The notes below the pieces were generated by a model. That model saw only the letters and a list, made by a program, of their open reading frames with translations. It was not told where the DNA came from and made no database searches. Below are positions 556-31,937 of a stretch of DNA of 32,000 nucleotides, one piece after another. Position numbers and translations under genes: made by a program. Position 1 is the first letter of the stretch; every line of letters starts with the position of its first letter. This stretch comes from Candidatus Hadarchaeota archaeon (GTDB taxonomy: Archaea; Hadarchaeota; Hadarchaeia; Hadarchaeales; Hadarchaeaceae). Location of the stretch: NCBI GenBank assembly GCA_964514965.1, contig CAZETV010000002.1:120001-152000 (forward strand), written 5' to 3'.

Positions 556-600
556 TATGTATACCGTAAGTTTTGCCCAATTCTAGCGGTACGAGTAAAC

Positions 601-6789: not shown

Positions 6790-6885
6790 TGGGGCCAGGG
6801 TCGGGATTTGAACCCGACACACGGGATATCTGCGAGAAAAACTCCCCACAGTCCCGGATGTTAACCAAACTACACTACCCTGGCC
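6790..6885 (-). tRNA. tRNA-His(GUG): tRNA-His (GUG) with encoded G-1 and CCA and a canonical ~18-nt intron after position 37
   Basis: Reverse complement reads G-GCCAGGG-TA-GTGT..ACAT-C-CGGGA-CTGTGG[GGAGTTTTTCTCGCAGAT]A-TCCCG-TGTG-TCGGG-TTCAAAT-CCCGA-CCCTGGC-C-CCA. Confidence 0.9.
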
Positions 6886-9632: not shown

Positions 9633-9952
9633 TTAATCACTCTCTGAACCTGCACTACCTTTCTTCAGTCTGGTTTCATATTTTTTTAGGACTAATTCTA
9701 ATGCTTCTTCTAAATCAACACCAAAAGAATTAGCTATTGTAATAAGTGAATATAGTAAATCCCCCAGTTCAGTTTTTAACTGTTCTCTATACTCAAGTGG
9801 TTTTCTACCATAGTCACTCATTTTAAGAATTTCTTTTGCAACCTCCCCAAGTTCGGATAGAGTATCTAAGACCCTGTGTTCCGGGGGGATTCCAAACCTT
9901 TTTTTTGACAAAACTCCTTTATTTTCCTTTGAAGATGTTTTAAATCGCTCAT
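9633..9952 (-). pseudogene. MazG-like nucleoside triphosphate pyrophosphohydrolase, split by a frame change inside an A8 tract (T8 at 9899-9906 on plus)
   Basis: ATG at 9952 opens MSDLKHLQRKIKEFCQKK, a typical MazG N-terminus, which stops after 28 codons. The -1 frame continues RFGIPPEHRVLDTLSELGEVAKE...ELGDLLYSLITIANSFGVDLEEAL (MazG EExxE/D helices) to 9633. One extra A, or a -1 slip, restores a protein of about 106 aa. Confidence 0.65.
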
Positions 9953-9999: not shown

Positions 10000-10027
10000 G
10001 GCTCTGTTGAAAGTCTATATTTTTAAC

Positions 10028-10152
10028 CCGCCGGGGAGTTGGACTCCCGTGTGGCGGGGGGGAAACACAGTAGTGGTGTGTTTTCCATGAGTAGCAGCAT
10101 CTTGAGGAAAATAAAGCGTTTGCTTGTCAGGAACCGCGTGCCGCGGTTCCTG
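10028..10152. other. GC-rich cluster of three strong hairpins within AT-rich DNA (possible small structured RNA or recombination/termination element)
   Basis: H1 10028-10057: CCGCC-G-GGGAGT-TGG-ACTCCC-GTGT-GGCGG. H2 10061-10086: GGAAACACA/TGTGTTT(T)CC. H3 10128-10152: perfect 11-bp stem CAGGAACCGCG-TGC-CGCGGTTCCTG. Confidence 0.35.
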
Positions 10153-10213
10153 CACGCGATGGGTCCGAAGACTTACGAGTTCGCGGATCACGCACTCGCG
10201 CTGCTCTTACGCG

Positions 10214-10430
10214 TGGTGCGGGGGAGTAGGTTCAAGCTCTCGTTCAAATCTCCCAAAAGATCTTTCGCAAGAATCGAGCAGGTTTCGAGCAGGATTCATG
10301 CGTAGTTTTTGCGGTGTAGAGTTCAAATCTTTCGTGCAATTTTTGGGCAAGAATCGGGCAAGATCGAGGCAGGATTTTTGCATGGATTTTGGTGGTGCGG
10401 TATTAAGGGTTTGAACCAAGATTTGTACCC
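10214..10430. repeat. Composite ~215-nt repeat R2 (inverted copy of R1) with three modules beginning TGGTGCGG, GCGGTG and TGGTGCGG
   Basis: Modules at 10214-10254, ~10311-10337 and 10393-10430. Spacers form stems CGCA(10266-10269)/TGCG(10299-10302) and CGTGCAA(10333-10339)/TTGCATG(10378-10384). Collinear with the reverse complement of 344-555. Confidence 0.8.
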
Positions 10431-10479
10431 ACACTTTTAATTTTTGATCCTTGATAAATGGGAAGTCACAGGTTTTTGA

Positions 10480-12984
10480 TTACAAAGGCGACCAAGTATC
10501 TTCAGCTAATCGTTTCCAATCATTAGGACCAAGAGCGATTAAAGTCGCAAGATCTGCTAGTGCTTTCCCACGAATTATGTACAGTGTTGGTTTTTTCAGA
10601 GCGTTTGGCGTGATGTAAATAAATGTATTATTCCCTTCTTCCAAGGCTAGTTTTGTTTCAGCTTTCGTAAGCGTAACAGGATATTCTTTGCTTCTGCCTT
10701 TTGCCTCTATTTTCTTCGTGGTCCCATCCGGCATCCGTGATGGGATGTCGAATCCAGCCCCTCTTGCTTCGGATTCATGTAACTCGTGAGAATCAATTCC
10801 GTATTTTTCTTTTTCATAACAAAGTGCAGTTAATATACCAATTCTCCACGCAATTCTATCTTCATCAAAATTTTTCCCTAATTCCAGCTCTTCAAAGAAC
10901 TTACGCCAAGTCAAAAGTCTATCGTGGGTTTCGTTCTTGATAAATACAGGATCTAAAAACTCAAAATCTCCATCAACAACTCCCTTTCTATCAAGTATCC
11001 CCCTTTCCAGCAATAATTCAATGTTCTTTTCCGGTTCAAATTCTTTTGAAAACCAGACTTTCTTTGGGTCGATCCATTTGCCAGTTTTCGTTTTAACTAA
11101 AATTCCAGAAAGATCATTGGAACCTACAAACCCATTCTCCCACCATCCTTTCAGCAATTTGACATTATTCACTTTTTCATCATCAGGAATACGCGTATCT
11201 GCCAATTTCTTTAGTAATTCAGGGACGCGATCTCTTCTCATATGAGTTTCTAACACATCCCTACCCAATTCTTGAGCTCCAAGCCTTCTGAGGTACTTGA
11301 GAATTAACTCGTCCCTTAAGTCTGGATGCAAGAATCTGAATTTACTTGGAAAGTATTCCGCTCCACGATTTTCAATCTCGGCATTTTCTGGAATCCAAAT
11401 ATCGGAAGCCCGACAAGTTTGCTGCTCTTGATCTAGAAAGCTTGTAATACTTAGATAATCGTACTTTATCTGAGATTGGTAGCCTTCAGAATATCCTAAA
11501 AATTCTTCAGCTAACGCTCGCAGACATTGCCTATAGTATTTCAACCATTCGTCCCTGAAAGTAGCCTTAAAACGTTCAAAATCAAACGGATAACTTCGGA
11601 AAAAATCACGGATTAACTGGAAGTTTGATATCCCTAACAATTCGTGAGGTCGGCAATCGGGATGAAGAATTTTTTTGCCCGAGAGCTTTTCGATTGATTC
11701 TTCCCCTAAAAACCTCACAACACTCTCAGATACTTGAATGGTTTCATTTGCTCTGACGAAAGATCCATCATGTCGTACAAAGTGATCTCCATTTCTAATT
11801 TCGCTTTCAATGGGATTTAACAAGTATCTATCAATCATATAAGGTTTGGCCCGTGTAATGAGAACATTTGTGTAAGAAAATTTCCATCTCTCGTGAATTT
11901 TGAATATCTTGATAATCTTTTGAATCAGGATATTTACGGCCTCTTCCAATAACCATCTATTCCAAGAGGTCTCATACTTAATTTCTTCTCTGCCAGGAGC
12001 TGTTAAAAAGTCTGCATGCAACATAAATGGGATTCCTCCGTATTCAACTTCTCGAGTAGGGACGTGGCTAAATATACCAAACGCTATAGTTCCCGAAGGT
12101 TCCGTTGTAAGGTCCATTTGCTCATTTAATCTAAAAGCGATTCCAATCTCTCGCTTTTCTACGCGACTTCTCCATTCCTTGGTGACGGGATCAGCTCTAA
12201 TATCCTCAGGAACTTGAAGCGCATGTCGAAAAACAAGCCATTTTGTAATATCGATTTTTCCATTGTAATTGAATTCAAGTTGGTGGATCTCGTAATTGTC
12301 TCTTTTTTCTAAGATTGATTTTCTTATGATTTTCCTCTTTCCATCCCACGCTAGCTGGATCTCATTCAAATGACGCAAAAACAAAAGTGTGCGTGGATGC
12401 AGATTCTCAAATTCTTCTCGCAACTTTTGAATTCCTTCCTGTTTTAAAGGGATTGAAAAGATTGTTCCTTGAGTTTTTATTCTTTCGAAGAATTCTCTTG
12501 GCAGTTCATCAATCCAAATAGGCGTAATCTGCCAAGGAATTTTCGTAGGCTCGGCCCAATGATTCTTGTCGAATTTAAATCGGTAAGGAGTTGAGTAAAT
12601 GTGCGGACATGAAGAGATTAAGAAAATGGACTTAAATCCGACTCCTAGATACCCCAAGTACTCACGCGGATCTTTTCGGGATCTGCCTACTGAACATATA
12701 GGTTCCACATCGTCTGGGGAGAAAGAACCACCATTATTGTAAATTTTTAAAGTGGTTTCTTCCAAAGTTGCATCTATTTCTGTAGCTCCTGCATCTTCAG
12801 CATTTTGGAAGAATTCAAGCAAGAAATGACCAATTCTCGGAAAAGTAGTTTCTACTATCCACATTGCTCCGGCTAGCGCTTCTAAAACGCGTCCGTCCTT
12901 TGTGTAACTTTCCCTGATTTTATCGATATGTTCTTTGGCTTGTCTTTCATCATTCGCTAAAATTTCTTCTCCCATTAAAATCAT
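10480..12984 (-). CDS. Sacsin/MORC-type GHKL (Bergerat-fold) ATPase fused to a C-terminal DUF3883 / PD-(D/E)xK-like domain
   Basis: 834 aa. N-box LLEFFQNAEDAGAT, G1-like KIYNNGGSF and G2 GYLGVGFKSIF within the first ~130 aa. C-terminus ARGAGFDIPSRMPDGTTKKIEAKGRSK...NTFIYITP matches the G-x-G-[YF]-D-I...IE-x-K-G pattern of DUF3883 (NOV C-terminal) domains. AT-rich codon usage. Confidence 0.7.
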   Translation of the reverse strand: MILMGEEILANDERQAKEHIDKIRESYTKDGRVLEALAGAMWIVETTFPRIGHFLLEFFQNAEDAGATEIDATLEETTLKIYNNGGSFSPDDVEPICSVGRSRKDPREYLGYLGVGFKSIFLISSCPHIYSTPYRFKFDKNHWAEPTKIPWQITPIWIDELPREFFERIKTQGTIFSIPLKQEGIQKLREEFENLHPRTLLFLRHLNEIQLAWDGKRKIIRKSILEKRDNYEIHQLEFNYNGKIDITKWLVFRHALQVPEDIRADPVTKEWRSRVEKREIGIAFRLNEQMDLTTEPSGTIAFGIFSHVPTREVEYGGIPFMLHADFLTAPGREEIKYETSWNRWLLEEAVNILIQKIIKIFKIHERWKFSYTNVLITRAKPYMIDRYLLNPIESEIRNGDHFVRHDGSFVRANETIQVSESVVRFLGEESIEKLSGKKILHPDCRPHELLGISNFQLIRDFFRSYPFDFERFKATFRDEWLKYYRQCLRALAEEFLGYSEGYQSQIKYDYLSITSFLDQEQQTCRASDIWIPENAEIENRGAEYFPSKFRFLHPDLRDELILKYLRRLGAQELGRDVLETHMRRDRVPELLKKLADTRIPDDEKVNNVKLLKGWWENGFVGSNDLSGILVKTKTGKWIDPKKVWFSKEFEPEKNIELLLERGILDRKGVVDGDFEFLDPVFIKNETHDRLLTWRKFFEELELGKNFDEDRIAWRIGILTALCYEKEKYGIDSHELHESEARGAGFDIPSRMPDGTTKKIEAKGRSKEYPVTLTKAETKLALEEGNNTFIYITPNALKKPTLYIIRGKALADLATLIALGPNDWKRLAEDTWSPL

Positions 12985-13000
12985 GCCTATTACATGTAAA

Positions 13001-13672
13001 CTATTTACCTGTTCTTATTTCTCCTGCTTCCATTTCTTTTAACGTTCCATTTATCACATCTATCATCTCTTCGGGAACCGTATGTGTGGGATATCTTCTG
13101 CTCCCTGTTTTCCAATATATTCGATAGGATCTAGTTATCGCTAAATCTCTCGGCGCTGGGTACGTTCCTCTCATATCCCTTATCTTTGCTAGTATGTCGA
13201 TCCATGTTGCACCTCCATAAGCCTTATCCCACTTGCTCTCTTTATGTAGTTCAATAATAGCCTTCAAAAAATGATATGCTCTATTTTTAGTGTCCTTTAA
13301 TGCTCCCAAAACCTCTTTGCGTATATCACCCTGCCTATCCTCTAGCCTGAAAATGCCTTTCTTAATATCGAAATAGTAGTGCTTACCTATAAAACAATCT
13401 ATCTCTGTGTATTCAGGCAGGCCGACCTCATTCAGAGCAGAAATAAACTTTTCATCGTCTAGTTTCTCTGGATTAGTTAGCTCTTCCAGAGCTTTTTCTT
13501 TCTCTTCAGCTACAAAGTAAGCGTAAGTGTCTTTACTAAACTTATAGTCGAAATCATCAAACCACTTTAACCTGGCTACCTTTCCTAACCTATAAAGCCT
13601 TCTATCATTATAGAAAAATCTTCTCAGCAAAATATTCCTTTCTTTCACTTTAGATTGACTCATGTTACCCAT
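13001..13672 (-). CDS. Hypothetical protein, partner of the GHKL-DUF3883 gene (no recognisable domain)
   Basis: 223-aa ORF ending 16 nt upstream of the 834-aa gene start, same strand. TTTATAA (reverse complement of 13691-13697) lies ~22 nt upstream of the first ATG, so the real start may be the ATG at 13663 on a leaderless or short-leader mRNA. Confidence 0.6.
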   Translation of the reverse strand: MGNMSQSKVKERNILLRRFFYNDRRLYRLGKVARLKWFDDFDYKFSKDTYAYFVAEEKEKALEELTNPEKLDDEKFISALNEVGLPEYTEIDCFIGKHYYFDIKKGIFRLEDRQGDIRKEVLGALKDTKNRAYHFLKAIIELHKESKWDKAYGGATWIDILAKIRDMRGTYPAPRDLAITRSYRIYWKTGSRRYPTHTVPEEMIDVINGTLKEMEAGEIRTGK

Positions 13673-13690
13673 AAATTTTAATGGTTTTCC

Positions 13691-13697
13691 TTATAAA
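13691..13697 (-). promoter_or_regulatory. Putative archaeal TATA box for the 223-aa/834-aa operon
   Basis: Minus-strand TTTATAA preceded by purine-rich AGC, 22-31 nt upstream of the two candidate ATGs. Confidence 0.35.
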
Positions 13698-13804
13698 GCT
13701 TTACCGTATTAGGTCAAGCTTGCTCTTATACGATATAGATAACCAAAAAAACGGTTTCCCGTAAAATCTCCTCAGAAAATGCCTAGGCTACTTAGCAGAA
13801 CCTA

Positions 13805-13848
13805 TGGTGTGAAAGTTGGATTCACACCCTCGTTCATACCCTCACCCC
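13805..13848. repeat. Degenerate copy of the ~42-nt tRNA-3'-end-like module (TGGTGTGAAAG..CTCGTTCATACCCTC), containing an 8-bp hairpin
   Basis: Aligns with 10214-10254 and 15230-15270 (shared TGGTG...GxTTCA...C.CGTT.A.A.C). Hairpin GGTGTGAA-AGTTGGA-TTCACACC at 13806-13828 lies ~80 nt downstream of the 369-aa gene stop. Confidence 0.5.
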
Positions 13849-13908
13849 CCTTGCGGTTACAGGCTGAAGTTGTAGTGGGTTTGGTTAGGTTTCATATCTA
13901 CTCAAGGC

Positions 13909-15009
13909 CTAAATCCACTTTTTGTACTTTAGATAGTAGACGTAAACAGCCACGATCTCGTCAAATACATTCTCAAGATTCTCGAAAAAGAACGGTGTGT
14001 CAGGATCGCAGATGTGTGTAGCATAGTTTCTTAACGCCCAAAGAATGAGAACATTCTTTTCAGGCCTATTGCACTTTAAAGCTTTCCTCACTAGATCATC
14101 GAAATCCTTTGGTGTCTGAGGACTTTTGTTTCTTGGATTTACTTCGTTCTTAAACCAAGTTTCTTTCCCGAATATTGCAGATAATAGTTCGCCTAATGTT
14201 CCAGAAGTCTTTTCATAGTATCTCATCCTTAATTCAATGAATCGACAAAGGCTGATTACTCCGTCAAATAGCCTTAATCTGGTGTAGATGTTATTCCTGT
14301 TCAAATAAATCCCACGATCTTTCTCTTCTTTTAGGAGCACCAGATTTCTATGAACGACCCAAAGTGAGCCCTCTAGCAAAGCGCGTTGCTCTGGAGAATC
14401 GTCAAGTTCCTTAAATAATTCATCAATGTTAACACTATCTTTGAATTCGGTGTTGTATTTGTCGATTGCTTTTTTCATCATAATCCAAGGAGCCTCTCCG
14501 CCAAACTGGCTTATGCCTTGACGATGAGCGCTTTCTGTAAACTGAGTGTATAGTGGATTGTGGAAGATGTTCTTAGTAGGGTCCCCCGCCCATCCTCTAT
14601 CTTCGTGGCAAGCCCAAAGCAGGTAAGCGATGCCTCCGTCAAGGTCTCCTTCGGCTAATGCAGATACACCAAGATTTCCACAAACCATTCCCTTGTTAAG
14701 TGGTTTATTGTTTTTCTTCTCGTATTCGTTAATCGCGTTCAATATTTGCCAATAATACATTTTAGACATGCCTGTGACGTTCTTTTGTAAAAATGGTATG
14801 CCAATATTGTTTGCCCGATTGAAATACTCATTCTTTTTGTCATAGCCTCCTTCTGGCTTTTCATGATCGTATGGTTCCGCCGCTTTCATGTCTTGTTGTA
14901 GATCCATTAATCCCAAAGACACAGCTTTCTCGTATGACTTGAGACAATCAATCGCGAGAGTAATCCCAAGCCTGTAATTGTTCCACCTACCGAACTCTAA
15001 CAGAGACAT
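13909..15009 (-). CDS. Hypothetical helical protein with a C-terminal HEPN-type RNxxxH motif (candidate RNase/abortive-infection effector)
   Basis: ORF 13909-15018 opens with GTG. The ATG at 15009 is preceded by GGTGA 5 nt upstream, so it is the preferred start (366 aa). ...LILWALRNYATHICDPD... gives R-N-x3-H in a predicted helical C-terminal region. No other motif recognised. Confidence 0.55.
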   Translation of the reverse strand: MSLLEFGRWNNYRLGITLAIDCLKSYEKAVSLGLMDLQQDMKAAEPYDHEKPEGGYDKKNEYFNRANNIGIPFLQKNVTGMSKMYYWQILNAINEYEKKNNKPLNKGMVCGNLGVSALAEGDLDGGIAYLLWACHEDRGWAGDPTKNIFHNPLYTQFTESAHRQGISQFGGEAPWIMMKKAIDKYNTEFKDSVNIDELFKELDDSPEQRALLEGSLWVVHRNLVLLKEEKDRGIYLNRNNIYTRLRLFDGVISLCRFIELRMRYYEKTSGTLGELLSAIFGKETWFKNEVNPRNKSPQTPKDFDDLVRKALKCNRPEKNVLILWALRNYATHICDPDTPFFFENLENVFDEIVAVYVYYLKYKKWI

Positions 15010-15229
15010 AAATTTCACCTATCTTTTTAGGTCCAACACCTAAATAGAAGTTGCCTTTCTGTAGGGAATTGTCAGAATCTAACATTGTGTTTAACGCGAT
15101 AATTATTTTTAAGATATGCTTACATGCACCTTCGACTCCAAACTAGTTTCAGAACGCCTTTTCCAGCTTTTTACGGCTCCTTTACGGGAAAACTACGTGA
15201 AAAATGCCCAGATGGCTTCGTGGAATGTA

Positions 15230-15270
15230 TGGTGCGGGGGGTTAGGTTTATGCTACCGTTTAAATCTACC
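15230..15270. repeat. Third direct copy of the ~42-nt tRNA-3'-end-like module (TGGTGCGGGGGGTTAGGTTTATGCTACCGTTTAAATCTACC)
   Basis: Same orientation as, and alignable with, 10214-10254 (TGGTGCGGGGGAGTAGGTTCAAGCTCTCGTTCAAATCTCCC). Confidence 0.65.
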
Positions 15271-15483
15271 GAAACTCGCGATCCACTCATCGCTTATTTA
15301 TAACTTATTTTATAAGATATAGATATTCTGGGCGCTGACTGGCATTAACCCCCAATCAAACGACTCGCACAAGGAAAGCATAGTAGTCGAAGGGTCAATC
15401 CCCATTACTCTTTGCTTTAAGGGTCTAGCTCACGTGGCCGCCACCTATTGGAATTTGCAGCCTCCCGGGCGGCACGCAAAAGG

Positions 15484-15490
15484 CTTTATG
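15484..15490 (+). promoter_or_regulatory. Putative BRE/TATA element of the alba gene
   Basis: GCAAAAGG-CTTTATG lies ~37-55 nt upstream of the candidate ATGs at 15527 and 15542. Confidence 0.3.
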
Positions 15491-15541
15491 CCACCCCACC
15501 AAATTAAGGGCGCCCGACTAAACAAGATGAGGCAGGAAACA

Positions 15542-15865
15542 ATGGCTGAAGAAAAGGCAGCAGAGAAAAAAGTAGTTGCGGAAAAAAAGGCAGCGGCAGA
15601 AAATGCCGTTTTTATCGGAATAAAACCAGTGATGAACTACGTGTTGGCAGTGATAACGCAGTTCAACATGGGGACCGGTGAGGTCACCCTCAAGGCACGA
15701 GGCAAAGCCATCAGCAGGGCCGTCGATGTAGCAGAGATCGTCAGAAATCGATTTTTGCAGAGTTTGGCCGTGAAGAACATCCAAATTGGAACTGAGGAAC
15801 TTCAGGCCGAAAGTGGCACCATTAACGTGTCCACCATAGAGATAACGCTTGGAAAGGGTGAATGA
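15542..15865 (+). CDS. albA: Chromatin/RNA-binding protein Alba with a Lys/Ala/Glu-rich N-terminal extension
   Basis: C-terminal ~90 aa ([45 protein letters not shown]...V....I.IGTEEL) is a canonical Alba fold sequence. Start assigned to the ATG at 15542 (alternative 15527). The ORF-track start at 15434 is unlikely. Confidence 0.9.
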
Positions 15866-17554: not shown

Positions 17555-18211
17555 TCAACGCCCAAATTTCCTTTCTTGCGCATGGTACCAACTGAAGGCC
17601 GCCTCCCAATCTTGTTCTGTGCATTCAGGAAATAGTTTTTTGATAAAGTAAAGCTCAGAATATCGTGCTTGAATACTTAAGAAATCGGACAATCTTTGAA
17701 GGTTGCCTGTTCTTATTATTAGATTAGGTTCTATATCTACCATCAAAAGAGACTTCACCTCTGATTCCGGTTCCCTAGATGCTTTCAAACAAGCATTCAA
17801 AAATTCATGTTGAGCACTCCATGCCATTAGAAACACCACACAGTGTCTTGTATAGGCTTTAGTGGCTTCGGTAAGTTGATCCATTACCTCCCTCAAAGAA
17901 ACTGGGAATACTTCTCGTTGTGTAGAATAAAACTGAAAATTAATCTGTTTTTGATGAACTTCTGAATTCGAGTCCAAGTATTTTCGAAACTCTTTTTCAT
18001 AAAGAGCGAATACCTCTTCGAGCTTTTCTTTGGGTCTTTTGAGATTATCTTCGCTCAAAGCATAAACAATTATATGCGAGACATCCTTTTGAGAACAGAA
18101 GTCTAGGAACGTCCTTAGTGTTTCTACGCCCTTTCTAAATACCTCAGCCTCGGATATACCGTATTTTTCAGCGTATCTACGGTTACCATCCGGTATAAGC
18201 CCGACGATCAT
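17555..18211 (-). CDS. uppS: cis-prenyltransferase (undecaprenyl/di-trans,poly-cis-polyprenyl diphosphate synthase family), divergent
   Basis: 218 aa. IPDGNRRYA (DGNRRWA motif), VYALSEDNLKRP, IIRTGNLQRLSDFL and YSELYF correspond to conserved UPPS blocks with several substitutions. The gene sits in an AT-rich patch. Confidence 0.7.
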   Translation of the reverse strand: MIVGLIPDGNRRYAEKYGISEAEVFRKGVETLRTFLDFCSQKDVSHIIVYALSEDNLKRPKEKLEEVFALYEKEFRKYLDSNSEVHQKQINFQFYSTQREVFPVSLREVMDQLTEATKAYTRHCVVFLMAWSAQHEFLNACLKASREPESEVKSLLMVDIEPNLIIRTGNLQRLSDFLSIQARYSELYFIKKLFPECTEQDWEAAFSWYHAQERKFGR

Positions 18212-21627: not shown

Positions 21628-21799
21628 TGGATCACCAAGATAGATATAGCAATTCCTCCAATAACTTTTGCGCACAAAGGGAGAATATCTTAAAGCTAAA
21701 AAATAAGATGGTCTGAATCCTGCTTACAGGTAAAGCTATGCATCAACGCAATAATTGGGTTTTGATCTAGCAAATGATACTTTCAGCTTTTTACTAAAT

Positions 21800-21828
21800 G
21801 CGCCAGCCATTTTTGACCTATGGTGCGG
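21800..21828. repeat. 29-nt direct repeat (GCGCCAGCCATTTTTGACCTATGGTGCGG) duplicating the 3' flank plus 3' terminus of tRNA-Leu
   Basis: 27 of 29 identical to 22799-22827. Continues into a diverged T-arm-like sequence to about 21857. Confidence 0.8.
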
Positions 21829-21926
21829 TATTAGGGGTTTGAACCCAGATTTGTACCTCAGGCAAAATTCTGGGAGATTTTTGGAAAAACTTCGTAAATC
21901 TTGCCCAGATCACTTAGCGAGACTTA

Positions 21927-21963
21927 TGGTGCGTTATTAGGGATTTGTACCTAGGTTTGTACC
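21927..21963. repeat. Further degenerate tRNA-3'-end-like module (TGGTGCGTTATTAGGGATTTGTACCTAGGTTTGTACC)
   Basis: Resembles 21821-21857 and 10393-10430 (TGGTGCGGTATTA(A/G)GGGTTTGAACC.AGATTTGTACC). Confidence 0.55.
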
Positions 21964-22026
21964 TTCCAGAAGATCTCCGGAAAATCTCCTCGGACACTAA
22001 ATTATTGGGCATCTACTTTTCCCTCG

Positions 22027-22584
22027 CTAACTCTTCTTCAAAGAGTGAGGAATATAAAAGTTAGATTCTTTCTTCTCCATAAATAGCTGGTATGGTCGAA
22101 GTATAGTAGGCGTTTCGCTCTCTGGATATTCTTCTCTTTCAATAAATCCAGCAGACTTGTAGATATGCTGAGCTACAGTCATGAATTTAGAAGTTTCGAG
22201 CAGGAATGAAGAACATCCAAACTCTCTGCCCACCTCTAATAGTCTATTTAGCATCTGTTTTCCATAGCCTCTTCCTCTGTAAAGGGGACGGATGTACATC
22301 CGCTTGATTTCTCCAATCTCATCACTCAATTTCCTTAGTGCTCCCATCCCAGCGATATTTCCTTCAACTACCAGTAAGTAAATGATACCATCTGGAGGTT
22401 TCAAACTTGTAAGATCTTCAAGATGGGCATCAACATATTCTGAAATGGTCTGTCCAATGATGGAAACAGCATCAAGCTGGTAATTCTCTCTGAATTGATC
22501 TGCAATCCATGTTATAAGTTCAATATTCAGCTGGACGTATTCTTCTTTGTGAACATCCAGGTCGAGTGGAACAAACTCTTCCAT
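22027..22584 (-). CDS. GNAT-family N-acetyltransferase
   Basis: 185 aa. The acetyl-CoA binding motif MYIRPLYRGRGYGKQMLNRLLE (R/Q-x-x-G-x-G/A) and beta-strand pattern are typical of GNAT. Confidence 0.85.
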   Translation of the reverse strand: MEEFVPLDLDVHKEEYVQLNIELITWIADQFRENYQLDAVSIIGQTISEYVDAHLEDLTSLKPPDGIIYLLVVEGNIAGMGALRKLSDEIGEIKRMYIRPLYRGRGYGKQMLNRLLEVGREFGCSSFLLETSKFMTVAQHIYKSAGFIEREEYPESETPTILRPYQLFMEKKESNFYIPHSLKKS

Positions 22585-22616
22585 GCAATAGCCCTCTTCT
22601 ACATATTTGGCTCATT

Positions 22617-22763
22617 CTAGATATTAATTTCACATTTTGCTGCGGGTTGTCCCCCTCTTGGAACCTCTTCTGGAACCCAGCGGGGTTGAAATATAATAAA
22701 GATCAAAGCGCTCACAACCAAAATCGCTGCAATAATCCCAGCCGCAATAGCAAATTTACTCAT
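22617..22763 (-). CDS. Possible 48-aa single-pass membrane peptide (below the ORF-track cutoff)
   Basis: Translated by hand: MSKFAIAAGIIAAILVVSALIFIIFQPRWVPEEVPRGGQPAAKCEINI. Lies between tRNA-Leu and the GNAT gene, same strand as GNAT. Confidence 0.3.
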   Translation of the reverse strand: MSKFAIAAGIIAAILVVSALIFIIFQPRWVPEEVPRGGQPAAKCEINI

Positions 22764-22798
22764 GGCGCGTTTTCACGCCAGACTCTATTCTACCAAAG

Positions 22799-22827
22799 GC
22801 GCCAGCCATTTTTGAGGTATGGTGCGG
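22799..22827. repeat. 29-nt direct repeat, copy overlapping the genuine tRNA-Leu 3' end
   Basis: See 21800-21828. Confidence 0.8.
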
Positions 22828-22926
22828 GGGAAGGGATTTGAACCCTCGAACTCCTAAGAGACCAGCCCCTCAAGCTGGCACCTTTAGTCGGTCGTTAGAC
22901 CTTTGACCTGACTCGGCCACCCCCGC
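22820..22926 (-). tRNA. tRNA-Leu(GAG): tRNA-Leu (GAG), class II, encoded CCA, with a ~19-nt insertion/intron at the D-stem 3' side
   Basis: Reverse complement: GCGGGGG-TG-GCC-GAGTCAGGTCAAA-GG[TCTAACGACCGACTAAAGG]T-G-CCAGC-TTGAGGG-GCTGG-TCTCTTAGGAGTTC-GAGGG-TTCAAAT-CCCTT-CCCCCGC-A-CCA. AAAGGT repeats at both insertion borders. Confidence 0.85.
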
Positions 22927-22964
22927 GCCAAGCAAAATTATGCGCTGCGGAGATTTTAATCTTC

Positions 22965-23753
22965 TTAGAGTTTCTTCACTTGCTTCGAAAATTCGTTGAG
23001 CTTGCTCTCGACGACTCCCATAGCCTTAAGGATAATCTGTTCGGGCGGCATGCTGCCCGTCGATTCGATGCGGAAGATGAACTTCGTGGGGTCGCTTCCT
23101 ATTCGGATTGCTTTGGGCGAGCAAGTCTCGGCGCAGGCTTTGCACATTGTGCATAACATTATATCACTAATTTTCGGTTTTTTCCCAGCGAGTTCGATAA
23201 TTTTCACCGGGCAGGCCTTGACACAGGCACCGCAACCGTCGCAGGCTTTTTCGTTAAGCTCGAACACTGGCATGTACTTGTACGCGACCACTCCAGGTTG
23301 CCATTTCGCGTGCTCCTTGCCAAATCCCAAACGCGCGATGGCAGTCAGCTCAAGGTGCTGCTTCTCCTCGAGCTTGATGATGGGGATAGAACCGCTCACT
23401 GGTAAGACCTCTTCATCAGTCGACTTCAAATCGCCACTGAGTGCAGTCACATGACCATCGCGCTTAAGCGTCAGGGACACGCTACACTTAGGGCAGCGCC
23501 CTTCCCGACAGCCGCACTCACCTGGCAGGTTGTAACCTTTCAGGGGCGTGCGAAGGGGGACTAACCCGAGTCGGTGCGCGAGAACCTCATCATACATCGC
23601 AGAATCATTGACTTTAAACTCGACTTCATCAATCGCCATCACCGGTACTTCGCGCAAAGCGGCCCGGCGGAGGGCGTTCGCGAAGGCTGGATTAGCGCCA
23701 GATAGCACGAACTCCATCTCGTCACCTTTAAGCTTTCGAATTTTGAGTTCCAT
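22965..23753 (-). CDS. rpoD: DNA-directed RNA polymerase subunit D (Rpo3) with ferredoxin-like 4Fe-4S insert
   Basis: 262 aa. N-terminal FANALRR..L.EVP..AID.V....N.S...DE.LAHRLGL.PL and two CxxCxxCxxxCP motifs. Position after uS11 is the conserved one. Confidence 0.95.
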   Translation of the reverse strand: MELKIRKLKGDEMEFVLSGANPAFANALRRAALREVPVMAIDEVEFKVNDSAMYDEVLAHRLGLVPLRTPLKGYNLPGECGCREGRCPKCSVSLTLKRDGHVTALSGDLKSTDEEVLPVSGSIPIIKLEEKQHLELTAIARLGFGKEHAKWQPGVVAYKYMPVFELNEKACDGCGACVKACPVKIIELAGKKPKISDIMLCTMCKACAETCSPKAIRIGSDPTKFIFRIESTGSMPPEQIILKAMGVVESKLNEFSKQVKKL

Positions 23754-23762
23754 TTTTTCACC

Positions 23763-24152
23763 TCATACTCGACGGCCTCTTCTCCCTCCAGGTCGTCGAC
23801 ATCCATCGTGTGGAGTCGGCGTGGTATCCTCAATTCTCCCAATCCTTAAACCTGCACGCGCTAGTGCCCGAATTGCCGCCTGCGCTCCGGGACCAGGACT
23901 CCTAGAATTGCCCCCGCCCGGCGCACGCACTTTGATGTGAATGCCTGTGAATCCTTTCTCCATCGCCTCCTCAGCCGCGCGCATCGCAGCCTGCATAGCC
24001 GCGTAGGGTGAGGATTCCTCTCGGTCGGCCTTGACCACCATGCCTCCTGACCAGCGAGCTATGGTCTCTGCCCCGGTGAGGTCAGTTATGTGAATGATGG
24101 TGTTGTTGAATGATGAGTAAATGTGAGCGACTCCCCACTTACCGTCCATCAT
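23763..24152 (-). CDS. rps11: 30S ribosomal protein uS11
   Basis: [24 protein letters not shown]......GGM.VKADR.ESSPYAA is canonical uS11. Confidence 0.95.
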
Positions 24153-24739
24153 GCTGTCTCCTCCTTAGACTGCGCTTTGGCTTCACCTTCAGCCTCCTCG
24201 GGGCGGGTTTCCACCTTCTCTTCGACGATTGTTTCGGCCGCTGGGGCTTCGGGCTTTGGCTGAACCTTAAAAGACGAACCCTCTACATATCCGATTACAC
24301 CCTCTTCATCGAGGGGCACCAAGTAGCTCGGTACGCTGACTTGTTTGCCCGAGATAGTTATATGACCATGAAGCACAAGCTGTCGGGCCTGCTGTGGCGT
24401 TCGAGCTAAACTTTTGCGATAGATGATAGTTTGGAGGCGGCGCTCGAGCAGGTTTTCGATGTTCAAGCCAAGCACATCATCCAACGTCGTACCCTCACCC
24501 ACGAGACCAAGGCGGCGGAGCCGCGTTAGAAGCTGTTTGGTCTCTAGTTCCGCTTGGGGGCCCGAAGCGGTAAGCAGGTGCCGGGCCTGCCGCCTGAAGT
24601 TTCTGAGCAGGGTCTGAATCCGCCATATTTCCTCTTTTCGGCGGAGCCCGTATTGGCGGAGGAGTTTGTCCTCGGCGTCCGTCCGCTCTTTTTCCCAAGG
24701 ATGTAAGGGCCTGAGATATTTCTTCCGCTGGCGCTTCAT
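24149..24739 (-). CDS. rps4: 30S ribosomal protein uS4 with an acidic C-terminal extension
   Basis: RKKY..P.HPW...R...E..L...YGLR.K.E.W and S4 domain HGHI.I.G..V..PSY.V. The last ~45 aa are E/A/P/K-rich. Confidence 0.95.
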
Positions 24740-25269
24740 TCTGTCTTCTCCTCCTCTTTCGTCTCTACTTCTTTTTTCTCCCGCCTGCCTCTCCCAACTT
24801 TCGCGGCTTCTTCGCGTATACGGACTTCCTTGTGCTTCACTCCCACGACTAGGCCTTTGCGACCAGTGGTGCGCGTTCGCTGACCTCGCACGGGCAAACC
24901 AAGCTCATGTCTAATGCCTCGGCGACTTCGAATTCTACGCTCACGCCCGATGTCAGTGCGCGTCACCATCGCCACATCCGCGCCCAATAGGTGGACATCC
25001 TTACCAGTATCGTAATCCTTTCGCCGGTTGAGCATCCAGTTCGGCATTCCATGCTCGGCCGGGTTTTTTAAGACTTGCTCGAGACGTTCCACTTTATCTT
25101 TGTTCAAATTGCCAAGCTTCTTAAACGGGTCAATATCTGCGGTATAAGTGACAGCTCGGGCGAATGTCAAATTCACGCCCTTCAAATCAGCTAGCGCTAG
25201 CTGTATCTGCTTCTCGCCAGGTAGGTCCTTTCCCGCAAGCCGCACGATATGTTTGAATTCTTCTGGCAT
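24736..25269 (-). CDS. rps13: 30S ribosomal protein uS13 with a charged C-terminal extension
   Basis: FKHIVRLAGKDL.G.K.I..AL..LKGV and RG.RH..GL.VRGQRT.T are canonical. Tail is K/E-rich. Confidence 0.95.
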   Translation of the reverse strand: MPEEFKHIVRLAGKDLPGEKQIQLALADLKGVNLTFARAVTYTADIDPFKKLGNLNKDKVERLEQVLKNPAEHGMPNWMLNRRKDYDTGKDVHLLGADVAMVTRTDIGRERRIRSRRGIRHELGLPVRGQRTRTTGRKGLVVGVKHKEVRIREEAAKVGRGRREKKEVETKEEEKTE

Positions 25270-25330
25270 TCAAATCGCCAACTAGGTCTTTCTTAAATTC
25301 GCTGAAGGTCTTATTAAAACGTTCGAAAGG

Positions 25331-25418
25331 TGGCGCCGGGGAGGGGATTCGAACCCCTGCGGCCCAAAGGACCACAGGTTCTCCAAACCTGCGCCTTACC
25401 TGGCTAGGCTACCCCGGC
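25331..25418 (-). tRNA. tRNA-Ser(GGA): tRNA-Ser (GGA), class II, CCA encoded, no intron
   Basis: Reverse complement: GCCGGGG-TA-GCCT-AGCCAGGTA-AGGC-G-CAGGT-TTGGAGA-ACCTG-TGGTCCTTTGGGCCGC-AGGGG-TTCGAAT-CCCCT-CCCCGGC-G-CCA. Confidence 0.9.
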
Positions 25419-25491
25419 AGTCAATTTATCTATAATCTCGGCTCTATAATCACTTTCTCGCTCAGCCAGGTGGTCGAATAGGAACTTTCTA

Positions 25492-26478
25492 TCATTTCCA
25501 TTTCCGCTGGTACGTGCCCGGTAACATCACCACGCGTTCAGGTTTCGCTACGATTCCGTGCTCGGCTTCATAGATTTGCTTTGAAGTCATCGAGGCACGA
25601 GCTAGCGCGACGACTTCACCCTTAAGCGTCATCAATGCCACGAGGTCATCCTGAGAGATTCCCGTGTCGACTTGGAGCACGCCTGGTGCCGCGAGGCTGG
25701 CGCCGTGGCAAAGCGCATCGACGGCTCCATCGCGTACGACTAATTTGGGCAGGTGCTCAACCGCAGCCTCCACGGGCAAAATGACTTTGCGCAAGTGCTT
25801 CTCATCACCATCCTCGCTCCAGAAAGCGTAGGCGTCGGCAAGGTCTTGTAGTTTGACTAGGGTGTCGTCTTCGCGAAAAGGTCCTGTCCGCGTCCGACGA
25901 AGCTCCCGCATGTGGGCACCGCAACCCACGACCTCACCCATGTCGTGCATAAGCTTGCGCATGTATGTGCCCGCCTCGCATCCCACGCGCATGAGCACAT
26001 CCCTGCCATCCCGCTCCAAGAACTCGATGTAGTAAATTTTCCTCGTACGAAGTACCCGTTTGACTGCTGCCCGTAATGGAGGGCGCTGATATATCTCACC
26101 TTCAAACTCGTGCAACAACTGCTTGAGCCTATGGTCAGGCACATCACCGTGGAGATGCATTACGCAAATGTATTCTTTCCCCGCGGGCAGCAAAGTCTGA
26201 ACTATTTTCGTCGCATCCTCAAGTGCTGTCGGCAACAGCCCGCTAACCTTTGGGTCGAGAGTTCCGCTGTGCCCCGCGCGGCGAACCTTTAGCATGCGCT
26301 TCACCCAAGCGACGATTTCGTGCGAGGTTGGCCCAATAGGTTTGTCTAGATTGATGATTCCCAAGCGCAAGTATTCATTAATCGGGCGTTTGTCGGGTTT
26401 GCAGCCATGACTGGGATCGGTTATATCTTGGGCCCGGATTAGACTTTCACGCTTGACATCGGATGGTAGTTTGCCCAC
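25492..26478 (-). CDS. cbf5: H/ACA RNP pseudouridine synthase Cbf5 (TruB family with PUA domain)
   Basis: 328 aa. GIINLDKP.GPTSHE.V.W....L...RAGH.GTLDP.VSG.L catalytic-Asp motif and a C-terminal PUA-like region. Conserved position next to eL14 and Cmk. Confidence 0.95.
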   Translation of the reverse strand: MGKLPSDVKRESLIRAQDITDPSHGCKPDKRPINEYLRLGIINLDKPIGPTSHEIVAWVKRMLKVRRAGHSGTLDPKVSGLLPTALEDATKIVQTLLPAGKEYICVMHLHGDVPDHRLKQLLHEFEGEIYQRPPLRAAVKRVLRTRKIYYIEFLERDGRDVLMRVGCEAGTYMRKLMHDMGEVVGCGAHMRELRRTRTGPFREDDTLVKLQDLADAYAFWSEDGDEKHLRKVILPVEAAVEHLPKLVVRDGAVDALCHGASLAAPGVLQVDTGISQDDLVALMTLKGEVVALARASMTSKQIYEAEHGIVAKPERVVMLPGTYQRKWK

Positions 26479-26490
26479 TTAAAACACCTA

Positions 26491-26781
26491 TTACTGAACG
26501 CTAGGCTGTGTCTTGGGTTCAGAAGGTGTCTCTGACGGCTTTTCTGTTTTTACCAAACCCGCTGCCTCAAGCGTGCGTTTGACATCCTCGTCAGTGGCCT
26601 CCTTCGCAATTTCAACTTTCTGCTCGAGAGGCTCAAGGTGTGCGATGTTGCATCTGCGCCGTTTGACCCCAGGGCCACTCACTACCACGTAGATGTCGTC
26701 AAGCACATCCACGATGACGCACCGCTTACCCGCCTCATGCCCAGCGAGTTTCACGCAAATTCTACCTACTTCCATCACCAT
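26491..26781 (-). CDS. rpl14e: 50S ribosomal protein eL14
   Basis: EVGRICVKLAGHEAGKRCVIVDVLDD.YVVVSGP..VKRRRCNI.HLEP is typical archaeal L14e (KOW). Confidence 0.9.
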   Translation of the reverse strand: MVMEVGRICVKLAGHEAGKRCVIVDVLDDIYVVVSGPGVKRRRCNIAHLEPLEQKVEIAKEATDEDVKRTLEAAGLVKTEKPSETPSEPKTQPSVQ

Positions 26782-26782
26782 C

Positions 26783-27319
26783 TCACGACCTCTTTCGAAT
26801 GAACTGCTTCACCGCAAACTCCAAAATCCGTACCATCTCCTTAATGGTGAAACGCTCTGTGTTTAGCACGATGTCAAACGATGAATTATCATTGACATCT
26901 ATACTGTAAAATTGTTTGAAACGCTTGGCCTCGCTCCGCTCACGTTTGCGAGTTTCATTAAGCACCTCTCTGTACTTCCGCTTCTCCCGAAGAGCAATCC
27001 GCTTAACCCTTTCCTCTAGCGGGGCGGTGAGCAAGATTCTCAGGTCCGCCTTTTTAGCCATCCACCCGGCGAGGCGGGCATCGATAAGCACATTTTTGCT
27101 CTTGGCAGCCGCTACAGTTTGTCGGTCGATTTGGTGATCTATGCTAGGACGGCGTTCGGCGTAACGGGAAAACTCGTCGAGCGTCATCCTCCGTTCTTTG
27201 GCGAGCTGTCTGAAAACGGACCCCGCGCAGACATAGCGGAGTTTGAATTTTTTTGCCAGCGCCAGTGCGGCAGTCGTCTTTCCAGCCCCGTGCAAACCGC
27301 TTATAGTAATGACTACCAT
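26783..27319 (-). CDS. cmk: Cytidylate kinase (archaeal type)
   Basis: MVVITISGLHGAGKTT P-loop start at 27319, 4 nt after the eL34 stop. The 54-codon N-terminal extension in the ORF track overlaps eL34 and is rejected. Confidence 0.9.
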   Translation of the reverse strand: MVVITISGLHGAGKTTAALALAKKFKLRYVCAGSVFRQLAKERRMTLDEFSRYAERRPSIDHQIDRQTVAAAKSKNVLIDARLAGWMAKKADLRILLTAPLEERVKRIALREKRKYREVLNETRKRERSEAKRFKQFYSIDVNDNSSFDIVLNTERFTIKEMVRILEFAVKQFIRKRS

Positions 27320-27323
27320 TCGC

Positions 27324-27599
27324 TCACGCTCGAGCAGTTTCTTTGATTTCCTGACGCGCACAGGCGGGGCAGAGATAACCACCATAGGGACGATTCGGCA
27401 CACGGGAACTGCGTGGAAGGGACCGCAGCTTGCTCGGCCTAACTCGGGGAATGCCCCCCAATGGACGCCCACAAGAGGCACACCTCGCCACTCTTGCCCG
27501 TCCCTCTTTGTAGTGCGCGACGGTTCGCCCTCCGGGAGTACAGACGAAATGCTGTTTGTATCTTGCAGAGCGGTACCTTCGTGCGGGCATATTAATCAC
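27324..27599 (-). CDS. rpl34e: 50S ribosomal protein eL34
   Basis: RRYRS.RYK....TPGGR...HY........C..CG..L.G.P is a canonical L34e zinc-ribbon-like pattern. Start may be the ATG at 27590. Confidence 0.9.
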   Translation of the reverse strand: MINMPARRYRSARYKQHFVCTPGGRTVAHYKEGRARVARCASCGRPLGGIPRVRPSKLRSLPRSSRVPNRPYGGYLCPACARQEIKETARA

Positions 27600-28437
27600 G
27601 GATAAGCAATTTTCGCCAAATTTGAGAAAACCCGAAGTAAGTGAGGAGATACCAACTTAGAAAACCGCAGGAGACCCAAGTGCCGAAGAAGGGGAGGTCT
27701 AGGCGGAATGGTAGCCATGCCACGACCCATCCCGCGTATATACCCGATAGAATGAACCAGAATATGAAATATGGCACGATGTAGAAGAGCGTGGGCTTGA
27801 AATTTTCCTTCATCATCTCCCCCTGAAGCGACATTATCCGCTTTTGATCCTGTTGCAGCTTGTACACGTTCTTCATGCCCCGCTTGCGCTGAGCTTCGCG
27901 GAGTTCCTTCTGGAATGCAGACACCTCTGCCTTAATCTGCCTCATGCGCTCCCAGTTCACGACACGTCTGGTTATCAAGGTGATGATGAGGGAAACTAAT
28001 ATCCCGATTCCGAGGACGATGAATAGCGCGTATTCGTAGATGGAAGACAACCCAATCTTGAGCTCGCTCGCCAGTAGGGAGATGTCTGAGCGTAGGGCCC
28101 GGATATTCTCCTCCGTTGCCGATTGCTGCAAAGAGCTGAAAGTTTGGGTTATTCGGTCGTTTATCTCTGTGAGCTCCGTGCTATTGCCAATCTCGTTTTC
28201 ATATGACGCCACAAGACTATTGTAGAGTGTTCGCGCTTGGCTCAAACTTCCTGATGCACCACTTCCCTGCCTAAGTGAAATTATGGAGCTGTCCACGGTC
28301 TGCAAAAGTATCTTGTACGTCCCCTGCGCATCTTCCGCCTCCTCTGCACTAACCGTCATGGCAAAGCTTGCAAACAAGAATACTGCGATTAGCGAGCAAA
28401 CGAGTATGCGACGCATGGGTTCACCCAAGTACCTCAA
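27592..28437 (-). CDS. DUF106 / EMC3-TMCO1-like membrane protein (archaeal YidC/Oxa1-superfamily homologue) with a ~130-aa N-terminal secreted extension
   Basis: C-terminal half (MRQIKAEVSAFQKELREAQRKRGMKNVYKLQQDQKRIMSLQGEMMKENFKPTLFYIVPYFIFWFIL) matches the DUF106 coiled-coil plus TM layout. Sits in the conserved slot between adk and eL34. N-terminus has a signal/TM segment and a Ser/Leu-rich domain. Confidence 0.7.
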   Translation of the reverse strand: MRYLGEPMRRILVCSLIAVFLFASFAMTVSAEEAEDAQGTYKILLQTVDSSIISLRQGSGASGSLSQARTLYNSLVASYENEIGNSTELTEINDRITQTFSSLQQSATEENIRALRSDISLLASELKIGLSSIYEYALFIVLGIGILVSLIITLITRRVVNWERMRQIKAEVSAFQKELREAQRKRGMKNVYKLQQDQKRIMSLQGEMMKENFKPTLFYIVPYFIFWFILSGIYAGWVVAWLPFRLDLPFFGTWVSCGFLSWYLLTYFGFSQIWRKLLIRD

Positions 28438-28999
28438 CCATTTCCTTCACAGTTTCACTGAGTTTTCCATCCCTATTATGGATTATCCTCACTGCCGCGC
28501 CCGAGAGCGCCGCATATGCCGTAGCCGTAGCGCGATTTAATAGTTGGTGTTCCACGACTTCACCCAAGAGTTCTTCATCCCGTCTACGCGTGGTGTCCTT
28601 GACGCGTCGCCGTGCAACCTCTTCAGGAGTCGCTTCAACTATCACAATCGATTCGGGATTTAGCTCCTCAATCACCCATCGGGGTAGGCCGGGATAATAG
28701 CCCTCGGGTTTTTTGATTAAGCAGTGGGTGTCAACGATCACGAATTTTTTCCGGGCCGCGCGTGCGATCTGCTTTCCGGCCTCACGCTGGATTTCACGAT
28801 ATGAGTCTGTCGGAAATTTCCGCATCTCATCGCGGTCGGTCACCCCTTTGAAATCGCGCATTAGTTTGAGCATCACGTCACCGTAGTTTATAAACTGATA
28901 TTCGACGCCCTGAGCTTTGAGCTGCTTTAGCGCTTCTTGGACAACTGTACTTTTTCCAGAGCCTGGCACACCCGTAACCACGACTATCTTACTCACCAA
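28421..28999 (-). CDS. adkA: Adenylate kinase, archaeal AdkA type
   Basis: VVVTGVPGSGKSTV P-loop, ~190 aa, directly downstream of secY. Confidence 0.9.
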   Translation of the reverse strand: MVSKIVVVTGVPGSGKSTVVQEALKQLKAQGVEYQFINYGDVMLKLMRDFKGVTDRDEMRKFPTDSYREIQREAGKQIARAARKKFVIVDTHCLIKKPEGYYPGLPRWVIEELNPESIVIVEATPEEVARRRVKDTTRRRDEELLGEVVEHQLLNRATATAYAALSGAAVRIIHNRDGKLSETVKEMVEVLG

Positions 29000-30786: not shown

Positions 30787-30795
30787 TCAAAACAC

Positions 30796-31936: not shown

Positions 31937-31937
31937 T

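Follow-up and report, generated by a model that had tools for sequence, protein, structure and literature searches.

HEPN domains are recognised by an Rx4-6H motif, by a polar residue (N, D or H) directly after the Arg, and by an upstream acidic residue that typically stands within an Ex3[KR] motif, and outside of these motifs the HEPN families have little in common (Anantharaman et al. 2013, PMC3710099). ApeA, whose N-terminal domain of ~300 aa consists mostly of beta strands (PMC3710099), is activated by deoxydinucleotides, which that domain binds in a doughnut-shaped oligomer, and cleaves tRNA anticodon loops. DARNA (PD-T7-3) joins HEPN to a helical-repeat protein, is activated by single-stranded DNA bound to viral SSB, and acts as a tRNase. 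Both are examples of a HEPN protein that, fused to a sensor domain, suffices by itself as a tRNA-cleaving abortive-infection system. TPR repeats fused to HEPN were recorded before in LA2681, a family that is uncharacterised (Anantharaman et al. 2013, PMC3710099), and in the papers searched beyond that 2013 survey we found no mention of LA2681 or of the terms TPR-HEPN and HEPN-TPR. Here we describe a gene of comparable layout in a 32,000-nucleotide (nt) stretch of Candidatus Hadarchaeota archaeon (contig CAZETV010000002.1, positions 120,001 to 152,000; hereafter the window), whose product is probably a self-contained, single-polypeptide defence ribonuclease (RNase) of the abortive-infection type belonging to a previously unannotated family.

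The gene is a minus-strand open reading frame (ORF) that begins with an ATG at 15009, ends with a TAG stop codon at 13909-13911 and encodes 366 aa, and its start Met is also the start Met of its homologues. It lies in a window of archaeal gene content that includes Alba, TBP, RNA polymerase subunit D, ribosomal proteins and intron-containing tRNAs. An initial annotation, made from the sequence alone, had placed the gene here with a GGTGA element before the ATG, and had described an all-helical protein with an RNxxxH motif near its C-terminus. The ORF and a direct reading of the sequence bear out the former, and the latter agrees with an AlphaFold2 model built from a 37-sequence alignment, which contains 16 helices and no strands (mean predicted local distance difference test, pLDDT, 93.4; predicted template modelling score, pTM, 0.89). 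Two domains can be distinguished, a TPR-like one (residues 1-195) and a HEPN-like one (residues 196-366); the N-terminal sensor that had been put at ~300 aa and of no known type is actually ~195 aa long and TPR-like.

A word-indexed search returned 59 close homologues at 46-77% identity, none of which carries a Pfam domain. The few that bear a source name all come from metagenome-assembled genomes of Candidatus Bathyarchaeota and are all labelled ‘hypothetical protein’, and no homologue has a known function. An exhaustive hidden Markov model (HMM) search of 1.84 billion cluster representatives brought the family to at least 150 clusters, defined at 50% identity, most of them 330-350 aa long with the same two-part layout, and one distant member with an extra N-terminal HTH_17 domain. 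Among 185,579 species-representative genomes only one possesses a close relative, and no protein relatives of the family were found on IMG/VR viral contigs.

The predicted catalytic motif is essentially invariant throughout the roughly 150 clusters of the family. R327, N328, Y329 and H332, which form part of the stretch ALRNYATHICD, are invariant in 37 close homologues. In a superfamily alignment of 94 members reaching down to 16% identity, H332 is present in every member, R327 in 93 and N328 in 91 (with H replacing N in one), and the exact R-x4-H spacing is kept in 91 of the 94. Upstream, position 259 is E or D in 93 of the 94 members, 86 of these 93 having K or R at +4. All three of the HEPN signature features listed in PMC3710099 are accordingly found in the family.

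Because the full-length model gave only weak TPR-like matches in a Foldseek search of the PDB (TM-score ≤ 0.26), we modelled and searched the C-terminal domain alone. The separate model of residues 196-366 (pLDDT 92.1) shows two long helices, a helical insert of ~45 residues, a helix that ends in RNYATH, and a last helix. In the PDB it ranks highest against HEPN toxins of MNT-HEPN systems, which take 13 of the 22 first places (7bxo, 6m6w, 6m6u, 7ae9, 7ae6, 7ae8, 7ae2 and 5yep) with a Foldseek probability of up to 0.85 and TM-scores of 0.26-0.47 normalised by target. As a negative control, the same domain searched against the viral structure library BFVD returned unrelated noise (probability ≤ 0.18). 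Sequence profiles point in the same direction: weak matches to the Pfam HEPN clan were seen, each in a single member (HEPN_Apea, E = 0.0023; HEPN_Cthe2314, 0.006; Ribonuc_2-5A, 0.01; Hypoth_Ymh, 0.061), alongside weak PADLOC matches to CARF_HEPN models (1.2e-4, in a single member, and 2.4e-3) and to Cas13-ApeA (5.7e-3), and the domain profile met the PDB sequence of Ec4ApeA (E = 0.15) with RNxxxH aligned on RNxxxH. Judged from the conserved residues and the predicted structure, the C-terminal domain probably adopts a HEPN fold; we call this probable and not proven, since it rests on motif conservation and on weak matches that converge, with no single significant one among them.

For the N-terminal domain, the profile of the 94 members aligns residues 104-138 with PDB entries for consensus TPR proteins. 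Taken singly, the repeats match only modestly, and the very low total E-value of the alignment stems from eight identical repeats in the target. Pfam TPR_1/TPR_2 match 5-8 distant members (best E = 6e-7), the 34-residue helix-turn-helix signature of TPRs is present, and the superfamily-wide conserved G107, N112, G114, A133 and E136-D137 fit the TPR structural signature. We speak of a ‘TPR-like’ domain as only about two repeats are clear. A second active site in this domain was considered and rejected, given that the conserved positions are those of the TPR structural signature.

Compared with the described systems, ApeA is the closest at the sequence level (PDB 9hxm, Ec4ApeA; HEPN_Apea) and also offers the best mechanistic model, that of a sensor domain activating a tRNA-anticodon nuclease. 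Like our protein it consists of one polypeptide whose C-terminal HEPN domain carries RNxxxH, and it is found among restriction-modification and other defence genes, whereas the ~195-aa N-terminal domain of our protein is all-helical and TPR-like and that of ApeA is beta-rich and ~300 aa. Neither a beta-rich ApeA-NTD1 domain nor a HEPN_Apea match above the Pfam threshold was found in our protein, which has no Pfam match, and in view of the missing significant sequence match we do not count it as an ApeA member. The LA2681 family likewise fuses TPR repeats to a catalytic HEPN domain in which Rx4-6H is conserved (PMC3710099), but our protein is unmatched in Pfam, HEPN_LA2681 included, even at E ≤ 1. 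The best structural matches are the HepT toxins of MNT-HEPN systems (7bxo, 6m6w, 5yep, 7ae8), with which our protein has the Rx4H motif before the last helix in common. HepT toxins are minimal HEPN proteins of ~130 aa that are neutralised by an adjacent MNT nucleotidyltransferase; our protein has the ~45-residue helical insert and the TPR-like domain in addition, and no MNT nucleotidyltransferase gene is found in the window or at the homologue loci. DARNA, finally, resembles it as a single all-helical protein that couples a HEPN RNase to a helical-repeat domain, and as an abortive-infection tRNase that is switched on by a viral component. The domain order of DARNA is however reversed (HEPN at the N-terminus, a Pds5/HEAT-like domain at the C-terminus), it is bacterial, and PADLOC (E ≤ 0.01) gave no model for our protein.

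We examined the gene neighbourhoods of ten homologues, and for seven of these and the window we compared all flanking ORFs by all-versus-all BLAST. Most of the ten loci contain defence or mobile-element genes. These include a BglII endonuclease; Mrr, HerA, Ymh-HEPN and AIPR together with an integrase; GmrSD; a Bil ubiquitin-like system with a GHKL ATPase and Mrr; an AAA_15/21 ATPase with HerA; an N6/N4 methyltransferase; NucS/Nmad3; and a PriCT primase. A conserved partner gene was sought across the eight BLAST-compared loci and rejected, the only inter-locus matches besides the gene itself being some short chance matches and, in two loci (L001 and L005), an integrase and MFS transporters. With no neighbour shared between loci, we regard the gene as a single-gene unit. 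Three loci show arrangements with tRNA genes: in one (L003) a tyrosine integrase that abuts the 3' end of a tRNA-Ile gene closes the island; in another (L012) the 3' end of a tRNA-Val gene faces the homologue at a distance of 300 nt; and in a third (L007) a 12.6-kb element lies between two perfect direct copies, 41 nt long, of a tRNA-Val 3' end (E = 2.5e-19; 1349-1389 and 13935-13975), and its cargo consists of the HEPN homologue, the N6/N4 methyltransferase and several unannotated genes, with no Pfam-recognisable integrase inside it. On account of these arrangements we read the family as cargo of tRNA-targeting integrative elements. As a separate observation, the Bil-like ubiquitin-like conjugation defence cluster mentioned above (L006, 3029-5685; ThiF E1, JAB, BilB-like and Ubl) lies ~1.3 kb from the HEPN homologue, on a contig that is probably archaeal.

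Taken together, these data lead us to favour, as the probable function, a self-contained defence RNase carried as cargo of horizontally moving DNA. The TPR-like domain would keep the nuclease silent until it is bound by a ligand arising from infection, probably a protein or peptide of the virus; alternatively, it might serve oligomerisation, or respond to a cue that changes the oligomeric state. Two copies of the protein would then pair their Rx4H motifs to form a metal-independent RNase, as in other HEPN enzymes, with R327, N328 and H332 as the putative active site assisted by E259 of the Ex3R motif. Once activated, the enzyme would cut cellular RNA (the usual targets of such enzymes being tRNA anticodon loops or mRNA) and arrest growth of the infected cell. 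RNase activity, dimerisation, the TPR-like domain as sensor, an RNA target and an antiviral role are what we infer from these comparisons, and for what triggers the enzyme, which RNA it would cut and how it would oligomerise the described HEPN systems serve as the analogy. The initial annotation had likewise proposed a stand-alone HEPN effector with a sensor domain; the conserved R and H, the ranking of the fold matches and the fact that no homologue has a known function all sustain that proposal, and its weak side is that no HEPN match is individually significant. Two further results speak against our favoured reading: the conserved residues of the TPR-like domain are structural positions with no obvious pocket, and two of the ten homologue loci (L005 and L013) contain no recognisable defence gene.

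An active HEPN RNase could instead serve the mobile element itself, as an addiction or stabilisation toxin or as a weapon in competition between elements that keeps the island in place. Consistent with such a role, our gene resides in low-GC, repeat-bounded DNA, its homologues occur on tRNA-targeting integrative elements, many HEPN proteins are the toxins of toxin-antitoxin pairs, and the best fold matches are HepT toxins. Yet the BLAST-compared loci reveal no conserved adjacent antitoxin-like gene, MNT or other; a lone constitutive toxin would be lethal, and the presence of a fused TPR-like domain suggests that activation is regulated, as it is in defence sensors. We consider this alternative unlikely.

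A HEPN assignment is itself opposed by a number of our results. All Foldseek fold matches of the C-terminal domain have E ≥ 0.27 and are not significant; no profile match to a curated HEPN family is significant (the best Pfam E of 0.0023 comes from one member and is below threshold); hhalign against a freshly built Ymh HEPN alignment covered only 20 columns around the motif (P = 0.04); a search of the C-terminal domain profile against 5.8 billion proteins gave no bridging sequence with a HEPN annotation; and the protein itself is unmatched in Pfam, PADLOC (E ≤ 0.01), NCBIfam, PHROGs and a PDB sequence search. With every structural and profile match thus sub-threshold, and only TPR-like noise from the full-length model, one could picture an all-helical repeat protein, TPR-like over its whole length or built on some other helical scaffold, whose R-N-x3-H motif serves ligand or nucleotide binding or plays a structural role, the more so as several HEPN-fold families are non-catalytic binding domains (PMC3710099). 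The non-catalytic families, however, are those that have lost the Rx4-6H motif (PMC3710099), and it would be a considerable coincidence if chance alone accounted for an Rx4H motif with its N, its position ahead of the final helix, an upstream Ex3[KR] motif, a PDB ranking headed by HEPN toxins, and matches to seven HEPN models. We regard a non-HEPN protein as improbable, and retain the HEPN RNase as our working interpretation.

The same-strand neighbours of the gene are a 223-aa protein without a family match (13001-13672) and an 834-aa GHKL/NOV_C protein (10480-12984), and the initial annotation had raised the possibility of cooperation with the latter. The 834-aa protein matches the Tiamat protein TmtA (PADLOC E = 6.5e-91; Pfam SACS and NOV_C) but is much shorter than the TmtA models (1063-1782 positions). 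A multi-gene system made up of our gene with the Tiamat-like gene and/or the 223-aa gene might be considered given that all three are adjacent, on one strand and low in GC, and that at one of the other loci (L006) a GHKL-type ATPase is likewise found 2.5 kb from the homologue. Set against this are a gap of 236 nt and one module copy (see below) between our gene and the 223-aa gene, compared with only 16 nt from the 223-aa gene to the TmtA-like gene downstream of it, as well as the lack of any relative of TmtA or of the 223-aa protein near the seven BLAST-tested homologues, which leaves the suggested cooperation unsupported and a joint system very unlikely. The TmtA-like and 223-aa genes look like an operon of their own, possibly a two-gene archaeal variant of Tiamat, and as judged from gene content and spacing our gene is independent of both. 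That the protein is a housekeeping RNA-processing enzyme which adjoins defence genes by chance is hardly credible, for while HEPN enzymes with housekeeping roles are known (Las1 and Ire1; PMC3710099) and the gene adjoins core genes (Alba, TBP) in the window, it is low in GC, patchy in distribution and variable in genomic position, one homologue sits on an integrated element, and the gene is absent from all 80 related TBP loci.

The family is most likely a new, unannotated one within a well-known kind, and not a new kind of system. It is invisible to Pfam, NCBIfam, PHROGs and PADLOC, and is therefore missed by current censuses of defence systems. If our interpretation is true, it would represent a compact (366 aa) family of single-protein antiviral RNases from poorly studied sediment archaea. 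To our knowledge, the defence systems of these archaea are almost wholly uncharacterised, and little is known about their viruses. The family would contribute an architecture of TPR sensor and HEPN effector that comparative genomics had already recorded in 2013, leaving our understanding of HEPN defence unchanged, widening its catalogue, and providing a small candidate for RNA-targeting tools; the sharply defined predicted catalytic residues (R327, N328, H332 and E259) and the high-confidence model make it easy to test. Coordinates of the gene, its domains and its surroundings are collected in Table 1.

Table 1. Coordinates of the gene, its predicted domains and motifs, and the surrounding tRNA-like modules and segments in the window.
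Feature	Position	Strand	Basis or GC content
Gene for TPR-like and HEPN-like protein	13909-15009	minus	ORF list, sequence, homologues, AlphaFold2 model
GGTGA Shine-Dalgarno-like element, 5 nt before ATG	15015-15019	minus	direct sequence reading
TPR-like helical domain, residues 1-195, presumed sensor/interaction module	14425-15009	minus	profile, Pfam, conserved residues
Clearest TPR motif, residues 104-138 (LNKGMVCGNLGVSALAEGDLDGGIAYLLWACHEDR)	14596-14700	minus	alignment to consensus TPR
HEPN-like domain, residues 196-366	13912-14424	minus	domain model, PDB Foldseek, weak HMM matches
Ex3[KR] motif E259-L-R-M-R263, second HEPN hallmark	14221-14235	minus	superfamily conservation
Predicted catalytic Rx4H motif R327-N328-Y-A-T-H332	14014-14031	minus	conservation in close homologues and superfamily
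Module copy on the gene's 5' side (tRNA-3'-end-like TGGTGCGGGGGG... and ~45 nt conserved flank)	15186-15277	plus	leave-one-out nhmmer E = 6.8e-11
Module copy on the gene's 3' side, most diverged, holds hairpin	13761-13843	plus	leave-one-out nhmmer E = 3.1e-6
Two module copies (10168-10262 and 10345-10435), 11-nt periodic repeats between	10168-10435	plus	nhmmer E = 1e-15, 4e-14; repeat families D1, D3
Intact intron-containing tRNA gene, apparent module prototype (3' end and 3' flank)	22820-22926	minus	Rfam tRNA 43.7 bits; ARAGORN intron mode
Segment with Tiamat-like gene and 223-aa gene	10436-13760		GC 0.384
Segment with this gene	13844-15185		GC 0.404
Segment with GNAT gene	21976-22779		GC 0.412
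Segment with core genes	22864-32000		GC 0.524

The gene was initially annotated as an att-bounded cassette flanked on both sides by copies of a ~42-nt module. Both flanking copies are real, as found by a leave-one-out procedure in which an nhmmer model built without the tested copy was searched for that copy, but the repeated unit is ~85-95 nt long, with ~45 nt beyond the tRNA-like part also conserved. Seven plus-strand copies lie between 10168 and 22863 (10168-10262, 10345-10435, 13761-13843, 15186-15277, 21787-21868, 21883-21975 and 22779-22863), all of them co-oriented with the intact tRNA gene and on its 3' side. The module core (TGGTGCGGGGG...GGTTTGAACC) corresponds to a tRNA 3' end in reverse complement. 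The real 3' end and 3' flank of this tRNA gene make up the copy at 22779-22863, and the first 11 nt of the copy upstream of our gene match the tRNA 3' end. We thus see in the modules degenerate versions of a tRNA 3' end with its flank.

Each short segment between modules holds one transcription unit in the orientation of the tRNA, with the next module following 45-66 nt after the stop codon. Our gene occupies such a low-GC segment of ~1.4 kb, and the copies at 10168-10435 mark the far end of the neighbouring low-GC segment with the Tiamat-like gene. Of all units in the window, the one that most clearly resembles a cassette is the ~1-kb segment (21787-22863) of a GNAT acetyltransferase gene (22027-22584; GC 0.396), which is bounded by 58-nt repeats of 83% identity (21789-21846 and 22788-22845), the second repeat being the tRNA 3' end and flank. 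Serial capture at a tRNA gene could account for this pattern, which likens the window to archaeal tRNA-targeting integrative elements (‘gene capture’), whose low-GC accessory genes are flanked by direct repeats of the tRNA 3' end in the same orientation as the tRNA; direct repeats of this kind bound the inserts here as well.

Other results temper the reading as serial capture and set the window apart from known integrative elements. No integrase or integrase remnant was detected in the window by a domain scan of annotated ORFs or by tblastn; the module copies are only ~60-85% alike; inverted copies exist at about 356-431, 446-501 and 507-583; and the module-bounded segment 15278-21783 holds core genes. 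In 80 related loci found through TBP, the module gave only 7 weak matches in 694 kb, and on this basis a lineage-wide recombination element was rejected. Our gene was not found in any of these 80 loci, whose gene order is too scrambled to define an empty site, and a search for an empty site with an identical TBP recovered the same contig only. Neither tRNA-like end had an exact match on viral contigs that could have served as attP. We therefore hold the term ‘att-bounded’ to be a reasonable but unproven reading: modules derived from a tRNA 3' end, co-oriented and bounding low-GC segments, are present, while an integrase in the window and any attC-like character are missing and no empty site came to light. 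The 80 loci themselves (L015-L094, from metagenomes, with TBP 80-93% identical) contain TRAM, Alba, UppS, SPFH and OCD in many orders and orientations, a scrambling that resembles the integrase-driven rearrangements reported in Thermococcales (PMC5495485).

Integrons offer a second comparison, as they too consist of short, same-orientation segments of a single transcription unit separated by a repeat. Measured by published criteria for attC sites of integron cassettes (Ghaly et al. 2022, PMC9668308), an attC reading of the modules was rejected. The copies fold no better than shuffled sequences (z = -0.43 to +1.37), the RNAalifold consensus of -0.42 kcal/mol with 3 pairs reveals no conserved structure and no attC-like hairpin, and there is no IntI in the window. 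The absence of IntI alone would not suffice, since a CALIN-type array without IntI still needs attC sites. Although speculative, the ~90-nt modules could be recombination sites of a cassette-assembly platform that is served by an integrase in trans and is integron-like in function with unstructured tRNA-like sites, a proposal that we think rather doubtful. Such a platform may have stacked low-GC, single-unit cassettes (GNAT, TPR-HEPN and Tiamat-like) in one orientation downstream of the tRNA gene, and inversions, like those that the pTN3 integrase drives in Thermococcales, might also arise between its inverted copies (356-583 versus 10168-10435).

The 8-bp hairpin that had been noted after the gene at 13806-13828 is real, with a perfect stem, a 7-nt loop and a free energy (dG) of -11.8 kcal/mol (z = -2.6; 2 of 200 shuffles as stable), and sits within the downstream module copy, 81 nt beyond the stop codon. 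An intrinsic terminator was rejected: as there is no T-tract after the stem, as the other module copies have no hairpin, and as it is located inside a module, we do not take it as evidence of termination.

Several minor observations concern the remainder of the window. A composite of ~250 nt, consisting of a module, 11-nt periodic repeats (GCAAGAATCGA/GCAGGATTTTT) and a second module, occurs as an inverted pair at 356-597 (minus) and 10168-10435 (plus), ~9.6 kb apart; the pair brackets metabolic genes and a tRNA, and its 11-nt periodicity is iteron-like. Just upstream of the second composite is a GC-rich inverted repeat (cccgccggggagttggactcccgtgtggcggggg; 10020-10075), beside which a short ORF (10124-10414) reads through the module. 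The intron-containing tRNA genes at 6790-6884 and 22820-22926 (minus) were missed by ARAGORN at default settings and found by Rfam and by ARAGORN in intron mode; the latter gene is called Val(AAC) with a 15-nt intron, and its D-arm and length look class II (Leu-like), making its identity uncertain. The Alba ORF (15434-15865, plus) has a possible A/E/K-rich N-terminal extension coded by a 33-nt tandem repeat (15545-15610), with gene callers placing the start later to give 107 aa. Finally, a MazG-like gene of 92 aa (9633-9911; GC 0.355) and the UppS gene (17555-18211; GC 0.391) are far AT-richer than their neighbours, which suggests further foreign patches beyond the module-bounded segments.

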